Below are positions 38,378-44,497 of a stretch of 64,000 nucleotides of DNA, piece by piece. A model generated the notes under the pieces. That model had not been told where the DNA came from. It did not search any database and worked only from the letters and a program-made list of their open reading frames with translations. The stretch is taken from assembly GCA_963635575.1 (NCBI GenBank), contig CAVHFU010000003.1, positions 3,539-67,538 of the forward strand. Direction: 5' to 3'. The DNA comes from a bacterium (GTDB lineage Bacteria; Bacillota; Clostridia; TANB77; RGIG9151). The translations under genes and the position numbers were made by a program. Position 1 is the first letter of the stretch. Each line of letters begins with the position of its first letter.

Positions 38378-40180
38378 TTAGCAAACAATATTTTCAACCA
38401 CAAACACTTCTACACTTCTACTCTTTCCCTTTAGTGGTATTTCTCCGATAGATGATGCCACTATTCTACCACTTAATGTCTCATACACATCTTTACTTAT
38501 AAGGATTTGTCCGGGTTTCGCATTTGATTCTAAACGTGCTGCGGTATTTACTGTATCACCAATTGCTGTATAATCCATTCGTTTTTCTGTTCCAATGTTG
38601 CCAACAACCGCCGGGCCACAATTAACACCGATTCCGAAGCTTATTGTTTTACCGAATTTAGCCTGTAATTTCTTTGAAAGTTCTTCAGAACCTTTTGCAA
38701 TGTCCCATGCAGTTTTTACCGCTTTAAATATATAATCATCTAGTGGTAAAGGTGCATTAAATATAGCCATTGTTGCATCTCCGATAAACTTATCTAGAGT
38801 TCCCTCATTATTAAATATACTAGAACTTGTAAGACTTAAATATTCGTTCAATATCCCCACAACTTCTTCAGGAGCTAATGCCTCCGACATAGGCGTAAAC
38901 CCTCTAATGTCTACAAATAAACACGCAATATCAGTTTTCTTTCCGCCAAGTTCTATATTATCAATTCCGTCTTTTATAATCTTATCCACAACTTGAGGTG
39001 CAACGTATCTCTTAAATGTCCCCTCAACCTTTCTTTTCTCTAAGACAGTTTTAACATATTTCTTCACAATAAAAGCAATATAAATAAGTATTATGAATAA
39101 TGGTATGCATAATACCTCAGATATCTTTCCGGCAACATGGTAAAGTGCACATATATACCCCCAGTATCCGATAACACAAATTGCCATTGCTATAAAAGAT
39201 TTTTTTAAACTACTTTTCTCAAAAATAATTGTTAAACCAAAAACAATGACGCCAATTATAATACATTGAATCCACTTTGGAACATACGTCTTAAAATCAC
39301 TATTTAATAAAGTATTTATTATATTTGCCTGTATTTCCACCCCATACATTTGCTCATTATGGTCGATTGCTGCTATATAGTTATCCATAAGACCGGACGC
39401 ATATGGTCCTATTAAGACTATCTTGTTTTCAAAAATATCCGGATTAATTTCTCCATTAAGTACATCTACAAATGAAAACCCATCAGAAAATCCACCGGCT
39501 TTGGCAGAAAATGGAATGTAAAACTCGCCATTTGTATTTACCGGAATATCATAGTTCACATTTTTTTCCGTTTTCTCAGAAAACATCTTATAAACTTCAA
39601 ATGCGAAACTTTTCATTTCTTCGCCACTAGGTAATTTTATAGAATTTATGCTTCGCCTCACTATACCGTCATCATCTACTCTTGTATTAAGATGACCGTA
39701 TTTAACGGCATTCTTAAGTTCATCATATGGTTCTTCTACTTGTTTTATGTAGTTATTGTCCAAATAAAACGTACCATCTTTATCGATTTTTAACTTAGAA
39801 TCAAAATTAACCAAACTACCTGTAACTACATTTTCTCCGTTCCTACAAGCCTCTACTAATGCATCATCTGCTTCTTTGGTTGTATTTCCAAAATACATAA
39901 TATCAACGCCAATTGCAGCAGGTTTTACATTTGCATCTGAATTTAATATATTAATAACATCTGCCATATATGTTCTCGGCCAAGACTGAAAAGGACCAAG
40001 CTGCAAAAGACTTTTTGAATCTATTTCAATAAGTGCAATATTTCCGTCTAATACACTCTCTGACTGAAAGAACATATCTGATAAATTGACTTCTACTCTA
40101 CTTAGCACACCACTTAAGAAAATAATTATAGACATAACCGCACACAAAGTGCAAACAAAATACTTCTTTATATGTATCAT
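38378..40180 (-). CDS. CHASE2 sensor domain class III adenylate/guanylate cyclase
   Basis: N-terminal TM + CHASE2 (~350 aa) + 3 TM, C-terminal cyclase domain (FVDIRGFT, GDATMAIF, GIGVNCGPAVVGNIG, GDTVNTAARLE). Confidence 0.85.
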   Translation of the reverse strand: MIHIKKYFVCTLCAVMSIIIFLSGVLSRVEVNLSDMFFQSESVLDGNIALIEIDSKSLLQLGPFQSWPRTYMADVINILNSDANVKPAAIGVDIMYFGNTTKEADDALVEACRNGENVVTGSLVNFDSKLKIDKDGTFYLDNNYIKQVEEPYDELKNAVKYGHLNTRVDDDGIVRRSINSIKLPSGEEMKSFAFEVYKMFSEKTEKNVNYDIPVNTNGEFYIPFSAKAGGFSDGFSFVDVLNGEINPDIFENKIVLIGPYASGLMDNYIAAIDHNEQMYGVEIQANIINTLLNSDFKTYVPKWIQCIIIGVIVFGLTIIFEKSSLKKSFIAMAICVIGYWGYICALYHVAGKISEVLCIPLFIILIYIAFIVKKYVKTVLEKRKVEGTFKRYVAPQVVDKIIKDGIDNIELGGKKTDIACLFVDIRGFTPMSEALAPEEVVGILNEYLSLTSSSIFNNEGTLDKFIGDATMAIFNAPLPLDDYIFKAVKTAWDIAKGSEELSKKLQAKFGKTISFGIGVNCGPAVVGNIGTEKRMDYTAIGDTVNTAARLESNAKPGQILISKDVYETLSGRIVASSIGEIPLKGKSRSVEVFVVENIVC

Positions 40181-40192
40181 CCCCTAAATAAG

Positions 40193-42894: not shown

Positions 42895-43350
42895 TTATCT
42901 AATTTTCTTTCTTATAATCAAAACATTTTTGCTGTCTTCATATTTATACTCAATATCATCCAAAAACTTCTTTGTCATGAAAATTCCCAAGCCACCAATC
43001 TCTCTCTCATCTATCCCCTTAGATATATCCGGGTCAATTCGCCCAAGTGGATTGTAAGGTTTTCCCATATCTTTAAATTCAACTTCAATCATAAAAATAT
43101 CCTCTTTTATGTTACAATTTATCTCCACCTCACCCTGTTCATCATATGCATAGCTTGAAATATTCACAAATATTTCTTCAACGGCAATATCTAACTTAGT
43201 TTTTAATTCATTGGTATAAGGCAATTTCATCAATTCTCCATTGACAAATTCAATTACTTTATCTAAATTCGTTTTGCTTGCTTCAATAGTCAAATTAGAC
43301 ATATTCCTGCCTCCTTTAGCTCCTTCTAAACATAAGCATTGTAATATCAT
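42895..43350 (-). CDS. Anti-sigma factor / partner-switching Ser kinase (RsbW/SpoIIAB-like HATPase)
   Basis: 151 aa; N-box EEIFVNISSYAY, G-box GGLGIFMTKK. Confidence 0.8.
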   Translation of the reverse strand: MILQCLCLEGAKGGRNMSNLTIEASKTNLDKVIEFVNGELMKLPYTNELKTKLDIAVEEIFVNISSYAYDEQGEVEINCNIKEDIFMIEVEFKDMGKPYNPLGRIDPDISKGIDEREIGGLGIFMTKKFLDDIEYKYEDSKNVLIIRKKIR

Positions 43351-44497
43351 CTGACTGTTCTATGCCAAAACTATGTTTATCAATTTCAGTGTGCACATCT
43401 GTCAAAATATCTCTGACCGCCATTTTATTATATGCTTTAGTTTCAAATAATCCTAGTAACCTTTCATCAGAAAACAGATCATCATTTTTATCTTGTGCCT
43501 CTGTGACCCCATCTGTGTACATAAAAATCATGTCGCCTTTGCCAAGTTGCATTGTGCTTTCCTTGTATTTAATGTTTTCCATACCTGCAAGAACGAATCC
43601 GGGCTTTGCTTGAATGAACTCAGCACTGGTTCCTTCTTTCAAAATAATCGGCAAATTATGACCCGCGTTTACATATCTAAATTCTCCGGTCTCGATATTT
43701 AAAATCCCCATAAAAGATGTAACAAACATATTGGCATCATTGTTTTCACACAATTCATTATTTGCATGTTCAAACACCTCATTTACCGAAATATTTAGCT
43801 TAGCGTAATTTTTAATTACCGTTTTTGCCATAAGCATAAATAACGCAGCAGATATTCCCTTCCCAGATACGTCAGCTATAAGCATACAAATATGTTTATC
43901 GTCCACTTTAAATATATCATAGAAATCGCCGCCAACCTCTTTTGCAGGAGTCATCGTAGCACATATTTCTATTCCTAAATTGTCAAATTTCTTAGGTAAT
44001 GAACTTTCTTGAATTTTTTTAGCAATATCAAGCTCTGACTTTAATCTCTGCTGTTCAGAAATAACATTAGTCAAGTTTGCATACAATGTCTCCATAAAAA
44101 CCGCATAACAATCCGGATTCTTTTTTACAACATCATTAAATAAAGTTCTAGAAATCCTTACAGCTTGAAGTGGTTCATCCGCTCTTACTGTAGCCGAACG
44201 CTTTTTGCCGGAAATAAGAGCCATCTCGCCAACAAACCCACCACTTTTCATTTTTCCGATTATTTTATTACTGCTACTTAGCACGGTTGCACTTCCGCTT
44301 ATGATTATATACATTCCGTCTTCAGCTTCGGCACCGTATGTAACTATATTCTCATCTTTATTAAACTTACAATATTCAAGCAGTCTAATTAGTTCCATTG
44401 CTCCATTAGAAATTTTAGAAACATCCGCTATTCCAAAAAATTTCTGCACAGAAACATTATTTATTAAATCATTAAATTCCATATTCTCACCTTTCAT
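43316..44497 (-). CDS. Cyclic-nucleotide-binding domain + PP2C (SpoIIE/RsbU-type) phosphatase
   Basis: cNMP domain (FVGEMALISGKKRSATVRADEP) then PP2C (DVSGKGISAALFM, FMYTDGVTE). Confidence 0.85.
   Translation of the reverse strand: MKGENMEFNDLINNVSVQKFFGIADVSKISNGAMELIRLLEYCKFNKDENIVTYGAEAEDGMYIIISGSATVLSSSNKIIGKMKSGGFVGEMALISGKKRSATVRADEPLQAVRISRTLFNDVVKKNPDCYAVFMETLYANLTNVISEQQRLKSELDIAKKIQESSLPKKFDNLGIEICATMTPAKEVGGDFYDIFKVDDKHICMLIADVSGKGISAALFMLMAKTVIKNYAKLNISVNEVFEHANNELCENNDANMFVTSFMGILNIETGEFRYVNAGHNLPIILKEGTSAEFIQAKPGFVLAGMENIKYKESTMQLGKGDMIFMYTDGVTEAQDKNDDLFSDERLLGLFETKAYNKMAVRDILTDVHTEIDKHSFGIEQSDDITMLMFRRS

Follow-up and report, generated by a model that had tools for sequence, protein, structure and literature searches.

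Can a handful of adjacent genes carry a signal from outside a clostridial cell to the phosphorylation state of a protein inside it, and what would such a circuit control? The question is raised by five minus-strand genes at positions 38378 to 44497 of a 64,000-nucleotide stretch of contig CAVHFU010000003.1 (below, the window means this whole 64-kb stretch), whose host, an uncultured spore former, belongs to the Clostridia. The genes encode a SpoIIE-family PP2C phosphatase with a cyclic-nucleotide-binding domain (cNMP-PP2C), a HATPase_c_2 serine-kinase-like protein, a secreted NHL beta-propeller protein, a FecR-domain protein and a CHASE2 adenylate cyclase. The original prediction had read them as a self-contained cascade running from an extracytoplasmic cue through cyclic AMP (cAMP) to a partner switch. 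We find that the five genes make up a signalling cassette that is conserved in gut-type Clostridia and has so far gone unstudied. On balance, we lean towards the view that they form the input arm of a cAMP-gated partner switch of PP2C phosphatase, kinase and STAS protein, built into an island of ~24 kb with a type IV secretion system (T4SS) of the integrative conjugative element (ICE) type, and that the switch controls this T4SS.

The proposed route has five steps. The secreted NHL and FecR proteins, together with the CHASE2 domain, would sense a cue from the envelope or from outside the cell. In the cytoplasm, the class IIIb cyclase domain, which has the expected catalytic residues, would then make cAMP. 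Binding of cAMP to the CRP/PKA-type domain of the phosphatase would alter phosphatase activity, in either direction, via the helix (residues 123-161) that links both domains. The phosphatase and its co-operonic kinase would determine how far the STAS protein encoded at 21774 is phosphorylated, with S62 as the candidate site. Finally, the STAS/kinase switch would control the island T4SS, either by way of the extracytoplasmic function (ECF) sigma factor encoded at the head of the T4SS operon or through direct binding between proteins; of the five steps, this one is the least secure.

The cassette lies in a seven-gene transcription unit

All five minus-strand open reading frames (ORFs) were recovered, and in a domain HMM run every predicted domain scored above its curated Pfam cutoff (Table 1). 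The genes had been described as an overlapping five-gene operon. They are indeed consecutive, but the overlap did not hold up. Homologue lengths (388 and 135 aa) and ribosome-binding sites place the true starts of the phosphatase and kinase genes at 44482 and 43302, respectively, and the apparent overlap between the two arose because the first in-frame ATG had been taken as the start. With the starts corrected, the gaps between the five genes are 2-15 nt, which is tight packing without real overlap.

The operon boundary also had to be moved. Transcription unit 1 comprises seven genes, from a DUF3307 gene to a gene for a 580-aa protein, p580, and both of these end genes had been missed. The spacer between the cyclase and p580 genes is 90 nt long and contains no terminator; the sole convincing terminator of the unit is the hairpin after p580, which none of 200 shuffled sequences matched in folding energy. 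The DUF3307 gene also stands upstream of the PP2C gene in the related loci L001, L087, L089 and L090.

The cyclase retains the residues expected of an adenylate cyclase

Over its full length, the cyclase domain aligned with class III cyclases, among them Pseudomonas aeruginosa CyaB (3R5G) and Synechocystis Cya2 (2W01). The catalytic Asp, Asn and Arg residues on which the original prediction had staked its reading are all present: the metal-binding D424 (FVDIRGFT) and D468 (FIGDA), and the transition-state N545 and R549 in TVNTAARLE. Adenylate-specific cyclases carry a Lys plus an Asp/Thr pair, and guanylate cyclases carry Glu/Gly or Glu/Cys. In the alignment, the position of K464 is occupied by Glu in the guanylate cyclase Cya2 and by Lys in 6FHT, the version of Cya2 engineered into an adenylate cyclase, and the class IIIb Thr (T538) lies seven residues ahead of N545, the same spacing as in CyaB. 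These six residues (D424, K464, D468, T538, N545 and R549) were invariant in eight cyclase sequences from two lineages. Judged from its residues, the domain probably makes cAMP.

The cyclase has transmembrane (TM) segments within residues 2-31 and 298-377, with the CHASE2 domain between the first segment and three further ones. The FecR protein begins with a hydrophobic, signal-peptide-like sequence (residues 1-26). No anti-sigma domain was detected in it, and it thus departs from the FecI/FecR-type anti-sigma architecture, in which a cytoplasmic anti-sigma domain at the N-terminus and a TM segment come ahead of the periplasmic FecR domain. The NHL protein likewise has an N-terminal signal-peptide-like sequence, together with a single detectable SLH repeat. 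The predicted topology of the three proteins fits extracytoplasmic sensing, as had been proposed.

The phosphatase carries an intact cyclic-nucleotide-binding domain and adjoins a kinase gene

The SpoIIE match of the cNMP-PP2C covered the full length of the Pfam model, and its metal-binding residues D186, D204, D324, D378 and D379 (GGDFYD, ADVSGKG, TDG and DD motifs) were invariant. The phosphate-binding cassette of the cNMP domain, GEMALISGKKRSATV at residues 85-99, aligned with the cassette of PKA RI-alpha, GEIALLMNRPRAATV, and with that of CRP. It follows the pattern G-E-x-A-L ... R-[STAG]-A-T, including the ribose-binding Glu and the phosphate-binding Arg; the latter, R95, was the residue without which the proposed cAMP input would have been lost. 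Across 17 sequences, G85, E86, R95, A97 and T98 were invariant (R95-S-A-T in the window protein). After the cassette Arg, all family members have S, G or A, and none has the Thr that is typical of PKG; with the adenine-type residues of the paired cyclase, this is no more than suggestive as to selectivity between cAMP and cGMP.

An AlphaFold2 (AF2) model of the protein (pLDDT 90) places the strands of the cyclic-nucleotide-binding domain across residues 36-110, with a helix at 86-91 and further helices at 112-119 and 123-161, followed by the PP2C domain. The eight-stranded beta-barrel and the B/C helices of a CRP/PKA-type domain are recognizable in the model. One continuous 39-residue helix (123-161) joins the two domains.

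The neighbouring kinase aligned with RsbW (6M36; E = 2e-5) and keeps the N-box residues E42..N47, D78-x-G and G103-G-L-G. The locus therefore has the defining pair of a partner switch in adjacent genes, namely a PP2C phosphatase and a HATPase_c_2 kinase whose N and G boxes are intact. The description of the kinase as RsbW-like is accurate as regards this domain and its boxes, but does not extend to orthology: it scored 43 and 40 bits against NCBIfam RsbW models with cutoffs of 145 and 155 bits, and 25 bits against a SpoIIAB model with a cutoff of 135 bits. By these scores, the kinase is not an RsbW orthologue. In some relatives, cNMP-PP2C and kinase are naturally fused into one protein.

The cassette recurs in rearranged gene orders

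The cassette (cNMP-PP2C, HATPase_c_2 kinase, FecR protein, CHASE2 cyclase and a large secreted protein) was found in four or more gene orders, with identities of 40-76%. In the window-type order, DUF3307, PP2C, kinase, SLH/NHL, FecR, cyclase, p580, ECF sigma factor, a small ORF and VirD4 follow one another at 63-76% identity (PP2C 73%, 72% and 63%). More than ten loci of the L004 type, from Lachnospiraceae and ~43% identical, have the order large secreted protein, FecR, cNMP-PP2C, CHASE2 cyclase, kinase, STAS, GGDEF protein and T2SSE ATPase, and the GGDEF protein has an intact RMGGDEF site. In the L111 type (L110, L111, L113 and L114), the order is cNMP-PP2C, kinase, STAS, Rce1-like protease, NHL, cyclase and FecR. 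Locus L175 combines VirB4, SBP_bac_3, p362, pilin, p580, cNMP-PP2C, FecR, cyclase and a metallo-beta-lactamase (MBL)/Apyc1-like protein, and L138 and L141 have p362, pilin, p580, cNMP-PP2C, MBL protein and cyclase. Because the cassette recurs in several rearranged orders, we take the functional coupling of its genes to be real; together with the natural fusions, this synteny bears out the predicted link among cyclase, FecR protein, phosphatase and kinase. PP2C, cyclase and STAS proteins also diverge congruently between lineages.

We further sampled the cyclase side in 80 metagenome loci and counted the 34 that had at least 4 kb on both sides. A FecR gene lay within 6 kb of the cyclase gene in 31 of these, and an NHL or other large secreted protein accompanied FecR and cyclase in 19. 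A cNMP-PP2C was present at 9 of the 34 loci, with kinase and STAS as well in 7 of the 9. At L142 (767-4523), the CHASE2 cyclase is followed by a fusion of a cNMP domain and a Na+/H+ antiporter; since the cyclase is paired here with another cNMP protein, a cyclase plus an adjacent cNMP reader is a recurring design. Members of the cNMP-PP2C family number in the thousands in Lachnospiraceae and further gut Clostridia.

As sister lineages place an intact GGDEF gene after the same cassette, the cassette looks portable and could be wired to other outputs. In those lineages, the output is probably synthesis of cyclic di-GMP (c-di-GMP).

MBL-fold proteins (Lactamase_B_2) occur in or next to three variants (L138 9001-9960, L111 9424-10257 and L175 17395-18237), and the L175 protein is also a weak match to the Anti-Pycsar protein Apyc1. 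They are candidate cyclic-nucleotide phosphodiesterases, that is, an "eraser" of the circuit; the window cluster is without one. A 261-aa gene upstream in L111 was considered as a counterpart of the SBP-like gene of the window and rejected, as it showed no similarity and encodes a choline-binding-repeat protein.

A STAS protein encoded 16 kb away is the probable substrate

The cassette is not self-contained in the way originally predicted, because the operon lacks a STAS antagonist: no STAS gene was found in unit 1 (36545-44859). The window contains two STAS and two HATPase_c_2 genes. One set belongs to a canonical spoIIAA-spoIIAB-sigF operon at 56326-57935 on the minus strand, with scores at or above the NCBIfam cutoffs (SpoIIAB, 57116-57583, 210 bits), which leaves the cassette kinase and the STAS protein encoded at 21774 as an unpaired pair. 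This STAS protein aligned with SpoIIAA (1TH8; E = 4e-14), with a Ser (S62) at the position of S58. After its orthologue, its best matches were STAS proteins encoded within the clusters of sister cNMP-PP2C modules (93.6-95.1 bits), compared with at most 89.4 bits for 50 STAS proteins from unrelated PP2C loci. The window's pair of STAS and Rce1-like genes also occurs inside the cAMP-switch cluster of L110, L111, L113 and L114. By elimination, similarity and sister-lineage synteny, the STAS protein is probably the substrate of the cassette phosphatase and kinase, and its earlier nomination as a partner was a reasonable one.

A SpoIIE gene (SpoIIE_N plus phosphatase domain) was also found at 3748-5964 on the minus strand. 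This gene and the spoIIAA-spoIIAB-sigF operon identify the organism as a spore former.

The STAS gene belongs to a predicted T4SS operon in a genomic island

Downstream of unit 1, beyond its terminator and at a distance of 80 nt, an ECF sigma factor gene heads a second unit. A promoter-like sequence, TTGACA-17-TATCAT (36412-36440), precedes it and matches 11 of 12 consensus positions. Between this promoter and the STAS gene, no terminator was detected and gaps were at most about 100 nt. The STAS gene thus closes the predicted T4SS operon headed by the ECF sigma gene. VirB4 falls in the Mbov_0397 family (582 bits; cutoff 590), VirD4 in the CD1115 family (297 bits; cutoff 250) and the pilin in the Mbov_0395 family; p362 is a 362-aa membrane protein, and the TM paralogues scored 154-207 bits (NCBIfam). 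These tandem MMCAP2_0566/Mbov_0396 conjugal-transfer membrane paralogues, at 26217-31975 on the minus strand, are 737, 615 and 549 aa long, and the first carries a CBM_6 carbohydrate-binding module. The adjacency of VirB4 and SBP_bac_3 is shared with L175.

The ~24-kb segment from DUF3307 to STAS or p173 behaves as one island beside a small-RNA gene, a kind of gene at which genomic islands typically integrate. The recG-glgA-6S synteny with L178, an island-less relative (72% RecG identity), stops at about position 45092 of the window. The whole island is absent from L178 and L179, and L003 has it with a different left flank. No recombinase/integrase or relaxase domain was found in any window ORF scanned. 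Att-like direct repeats between the 6S RNA flank and 18000-24000 did not exceed chance. T4SS relatives were not found in viral or mobile contigs. In L056, from an Oscillospiraceae metagenome-assembled genome, a large serine recombinase (Resolvase + Recombinase + Zn_ribbon_recom; 11751-13268) directly follows a string of T4SS, STAS, PP2C and kinase genes; the L056 partner switch is part of an ICE.

L001 (82% identity) lacks window positions 23665-41965. Because both breakpoints lie within genes at a GCCGGxxAAAT microhomology, we regard L001 as a deletion allele: its junction at 12517/12519 corresponds to window positions 41966 and 23664, and the 18.3 kb removed comprise half of the NHL gene, FecR, cyclase, p580, ECF sigma and T4SS genes. 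The phosphatase and kinase genes thereby end up beside SBP-Rce1-STAS. L002 is the intact allele, with an intact NHL gene and a PP2C protein identical to that of L001. We had also considered that the T4SS block might have inserted recently into an older cluster and split it. This was rejected, as L001 reflects microhomology-mediated deletion and the T4SS link recurs elsewhere.

Membership of p416 and DUF6320 in the module, an idea taken from L108, was rejected as well, as the pair occurs without switch genes in island-less L178. In the window, p416 (19292-21206 with DUF6320, minus strand) has the HxxxDG motif YHTLTDGTG and resembles condensation/CAT-type acyltransferases, and the DUF6320 membrane protein always follows it. 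The pair is probably ordinary chromosomal content outside the switch.

The position of the ECF sigma gene bears on whether this is a classical sigma switch. In such a scheme, the kinase would be an anti-sigma factor holding this sigma factor or one encoded elsewhere, unphosphorylated STAS would displace it, and cAMP would act through transcription. HATPase_c_2 and STAS proteins are the canonical anti-sigma/antagonist pair, and the ECF sigma gene, 80 nt past unit 1, heads the STAS-containing operon; this position is conserved in L003, L089 and L090, where a 73-aa ORF and VirD4 always follow. We nevertheless judge this scheme distinctly unlikely. The kinase scored 43 bits against an RsbW cutoff of 145. 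The L004-type, L111-type, L138-type and L175 clusters contain no sigma gene, the ECF sigma gene is missing from all 34 well-flanked cyclase loci, and in sister clusters the STAS gene is followed by a GGDEF enzyme rather than a sigma factor. To our knowledge, RsbW-type anti-sigma factors act on group-3 sigma factors (sigB, sigF) and not on ECF sigma factors. The sigma-factor target that had been proposed thus finds little in the locus: no sigB/sigF-type sigma was found with any cassette variant, and the ECF sigma gene has its own promoter beyond the terminator. Comparison of the closest plasmid VirD4/VirB4 relatives (Spiroplasma, Mycoplasma, C. difficile and B. thuringiensis) was uninformative on whether an ECF sigma factor is a regular part of such T4SS modules, as these are 27-31% identical and have no adjacent sigma gene.

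Control of the T4SS is the favoured output

In the neighbourhoods of relatives, T4SS genes of the window family adjoin or sit within PP2C/STAS-switch clusters in five independent arrangements (VirB4 61-62% identical). Besides the window type, L175 and L138/L141, these are L056, with TM paralogues, VirB4, STAS, PP2C, kinase and the large serine recombinase, and L035, with PP2C, pilin, STAS and kinase.

Several observations weigh against a cAMP-gated switch that controls the T4SS. The proposed STAS partner is encoded at a distance of 16 kb and in a different transcription unit, and the margin by which it resembles the sister STAS proteins (94-95 vs 89 bits) is small though consistent. Our reading covers the 64-kb window, and another STAS protein or cAMP source could be encoded elsewhere in the genome. 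The natural L001 allele keeps phosphatase and kinase without the cyclase, and a cNMP-PP2C occurs in the Lachnospiraceae genome L006 without partners nearby. The cassette kinase resembles kinases from generic PP2C loci without a cNMP domain (up to 134 bits) more than it does its L004-type counterpart (86-95 bits), which is why the cassette may in part be a mosaic. No T4SS genes lie within 10 kb of the L004-type and L111-type cassettes. Finally, T4SS genes were found at only 2 of 78 generic PP2C loci, a background set from a genome-collection scan with patterns from the catalytic domain, consisting mostly of PP2C-only matches and not including the species of the window.

Part of this evidence would suit a cassette that is cargo or a mere neighbour on an ICE-derived island, in which case the switch would work as proposed, its output would be unrelated to the T4SS, and adjacency would reflect co-transfer. 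A diguanylate cyclase, as in the sister lineage with GGDEF, or some other effector encoded elsewhere could then be the output. Besides the T4SS-free L004-type and L111-type cassettes, this reading draws on the use of c-di-GMP by the organism, which is indicated by a c-di-GMP-I riboswitch at 6965-7048; on the differing island flanks in L003 and the absence of the island from L178, which imply that it moves or is lost as a block; and on the serine recombinase flanking the T4SS-plus-switch block of L056, which marks a mobile element. However, switch genes are interleaved with T4SS genes, as STAS lies 8 nt after VirB4 in L056, a pilin gene stands between PP2C and STAS in L035, and in the window only two genes separate VirB4 from STAS. 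The association in five gene orders argues for selection on linkage, and the whole 64-kb window is without a GGDEF gene. We therefore regard mere co-transfer as unlikely, and favour control of the T4SS as the output suggested by gene order.

The most complete version of this proposal is that in uncultured gut and rumen Clostridia the T4SS of the chromosomal island, for conjugation or secretion, is switched by extracellular signals through a private NHL/FecR/CHASE2-cAMP-cNMP-PP2C-STAS circuit, with p580, as a PI4KII/CtkA-like kinase new to science, as an extra component. We put this version forward tentatively and with more doubt than belief. If it were true, gating of a partner switch by cAMP would be seen here for the first time, and so would the control of a Gram-positive T4SS by such a switch. 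Should the synteny-based T4SS link be real, a second messenger would govern horizontal gene transfer or secretion in gut Clostridia.

Table 1. Features of the window discussed in the text. Pfam scores are given as bits/curated cutoff where a cutoff is shown.
Feature	Position	Strand	Evidence
cNMP-binding PP2C (SpoIIE-family) phosphatase, 388 aa (ORF reaches 44497)	43316..44482	-	Pfam cNMP_binding 59.0/27.5, SpoIIE 161/25
HATPase_c_2 serine-kinase-like protein, 135 aa (ORF reaches 43350)	42895..43302	-	Pfam HATPase_c_2 67.5/27.4
Secreted SLH + NHL beta-propeller protein	41329..42879	-	Pfam NHL 90.3/20, SLH 36.3/20.8
Secreted FecR-domain protein, without anti-sigma domain	40193..41326	-	Pfam FecR 51.8/24 at residues 63-157
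CHASE2 class IIIb adenylate cyclase	38378..40180	-	Pfam CHASE2 153/26.3, Guanylate_cyc 94/21.9
STAS anti-sigma-antagonist-type protein, candidate phosphoserine S62	21774..22097	-	Pfam STAS 70.5 bits; NCBIfam superfamily 81/53
p580, uncharacterized atypical kinase-fold protein, 580 aa, last gene of unit 1	36545..38287	-	
DUF3307 four-TM membrane protein, first gene of unit 1	44524..44859	-	Pfam PF11750, 70 bits
Promoter-like site for unit 1, TATACA-18-TAAAAT with TG	44896..44925	-	Consensus scan only; weak evidence
Intrinsic-terminator-like hairpin (14 bp) + U-run, end of unit 1	36504..36539	-	RNA fold -20.9 kcal/mol, z = -4.4
ECF sigma factor, first gene of unit 2 (translation start probably close to 36395)	35898..36464	-	Pfam and NCBIfam
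ICE-type T4SS block: 73-aa ORF, VirD4, pilin, p362, three MMCAP2_0566-type TM paralogues, VirB4	23527..35860	-	NCBIfam, Pfam
SBP_bac_3-like protein directly after VirB4	22721..23515	-	Pfam, weak
Rce1-like (CPBP) intramembrane protease	22101..22724	-	Pfam 66 bits; EExxxR + FxxxH motifs
6S RNA gene, left edge of island, directly upstream of operon	45106..45297	-	Rfam RF00013, 87 bits

p580 is a predicted kinase-fold protein

The last gene of unit 1 belongs to a family of 49 matches, every one of which is annotated as hypothetical. In 34 sequences, the motifs DRHxxN (348-353) and IDND (375-378) were invariant (D348-R-H-G-x-N353 and D376-N-D378). In its AF2 model (pLDDT 84), all Foldseek matches with E < 0.05 were kinases: PI4KII-alpha (E = 1e-4), CtkA, CotH and MavQ. 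The Pfam Fam20C match was below threshold (22.7 vs 26.8 bits). The model shows the bilobal kinase fold, together with the catalytic-loop DxHxxN and a metal-binding Asp motif. Besides the window type, p580 homologues adjoin PP2C genes in L138, L141, L175 and L177. On motifs and model, p580 appears to define a new, small kinase-fold family tied to PP2C phosphatases.

It could be asked whether p580, rather than the HATPase_c_2 kinase and STAS protein, is the primary partner of the cNMP-PP2C, the two forming a cAMP-controlled kinase/phosphatase pair that acts on another substrate or on p580 itself. The p580 gene is co-transcribed with the cassette across a terminator-free junction and is kept in all window-type loci, and its predicted kinase fold and conserved catalytic motifs suit this role. 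In L138 and L141, the gene for the p580 homologue overlaps the cNMP-PP2C gene at its start, and HATPase_c_2 and STAS genes are absent within 10 kb; L175 is similar, and L177 has two p580 paralogues after a PP2C and HATPase_c_2 pair, without STAS. However, L004-type and L111-type cassettes work without p580, and the p580 relative in L176 has no PP2C gene nearby. Moreover, p580 accompanies T4SS genes in three of five contexts and may belong to the T4SS side. Its TM-scores to known kinases are low (0.24-0.45), and kinase activity is a prediction from the model. We consider p580 very unlikely to be the primary partner.

Comparison with known systems

The RsbU-RsbV-RsbW (sigB) and SpoIIE-SpoIIAA-SpoIIAB (sigF) systems of Bacillus resemble the window system in having a SpoIIE-family PP2C, a HATPase_c_2 kinase and a single-domain STAS protein with a Ser where phosphorylation occurs. 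RsbU/SpoIIE-type phosphatases are likewise regulated via an N-terminal sensor joined by helices. The window system differs from them in its cyclic-nucleotide-binding input, which is fed by a dedicated cyclase, and in that the kinase scores below equivalog cutoffs, the cluster contains no sigB/sigF-type sigma gene and the STAS gene lies 16 kb away.

SiaABCD of P. aeruginosa likewise combines a PP2C phosphatase and a kinase with an antagonist-type protein, which in its unphosphorylated form controls a GGDEF diguanylate cyclase rather than a sigma factor (PMC7647112, PMC8457831). The same logic is seen in L004-type clusters, with an intact GGDEF gene after STAS. In contrast, SiaA senses via a membrane/HAMP region and not cAMP, SiaC is not a canonical STAS protein, and the window has no GGDEF gene. 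The HsbR-HsbA-HsbD pathway is a further system of this kind.

The CyaD1/CyaD2/CyaK-Clr cAMP pathway of Sinorhizobium meliloti has a CHASE2 class III adenylate cyclase that serves as an extracytoplasmic sensor, a FecR-domain gene as its neighbour and a dedicated cNMP reader, Clr, and CyaD1 becomes constitutively active once its CHASE2 domain is deleted (PMC5498481, PMC13001267). There, however, the reader is a CRP-like transcription factor, no partner switch is involved and the host is a proteobacterium. FecR(COG4254)-CHASE2 histidine-kinase operons are known from Burkholderia (BiofilmReg) and P. aeruginosa (PA4035/4036) (PMC5192318). They share with the cassette the pairing of FecR and CHASE2 (31/34 loci), but their transmitter is a histidine kinase plus response regulator, as opposed to an adenylate cyclase here. 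The cAMP-sensing EAL phosphodiesterase Bd1971 of Bdellovibrio (PMC6717892) also fuses a CRP-type cNMP domain to a signalling enzyme, through which cAMP gates another signalling pathway. In that case the enzyme is a c-di-GMP phosphodiesterase, and its cluster contains no dedicated cyclase.

Partner switches have been tied to secretion before: the Bordetella BtrS/BtrUVW switch controls type III secretion, and its locus also encodes an ECF sigma factor. The Rhodobacter RbaV/W/Y partner switch controls the gene-transfer agent RcGTA (PMC3999984). Both link PP2C, kinase and STAS proteins to a secretion or DNA-transfer apparatus, but the apparatus is a type III system or gene-transfer agent, the hosts are proteobacteria and there is no cAMP input, whereas the window has a T4SS of the Mollicutes/Firmicutes ICE type and the link is one of synteny only.

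In the literature searched, the cNMP_binding-PP2C architecture is listed only in a domain census (PMC12088040), and we found no functional study of a cNMP-gated PP2C, a cAMP input to a partner switch, or a link between a partner switch and a T4SS. The Nostoc hcy partner switch was considered as a cAMP precedent and rejected, as the "adenylate cyclase" there refers to a two-hybrid assay. Varied phosphatase inputs, enzyme outputs, CHASE2-FecR cyclases and cAMP-gated enzymes are thus already known, and what is new is the cAMP input to a partner switch. cAMP signalling is poorly documented in Firmicutes (PMC5217690). With sensor, cyclase, phosphatase-fused reader, kinase and substrate all encoded together, the system offers a testable route from a cue to protein phosphorylation in abundant commensals, and in the sister lineage a partner switch would tie the synthesis of c-di-GMP to cAMP.

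Further observations

A T2SSE-family ATPase of ~350 aa repeatedly lies near the STAS-GGDEF end of the sister cassette (L004 15163-16218, L091, L092, L129, L134 and L077). Secretion-type ATPases hence stand beside the switch in both lineages, T2SSE in the L004 type and VirB4/VirD4 in the window type. The c-di-GMP-I riboswitch of the window (plus strand; Rfam 87.7 bits) is located ahead of an ORF at 7100-7930 on the same strand, which encodes a putative Zn-metallopeptidase with a weak SprT-like match. At the left flank of the L003 island lies a gene for a Flg_new-repeat protein, and window positions 7975-12303 on the minus strand encode a 1442-aa surface protein with SLH, Listeria-Bacteroides (Flg_new) repeats and VWA.

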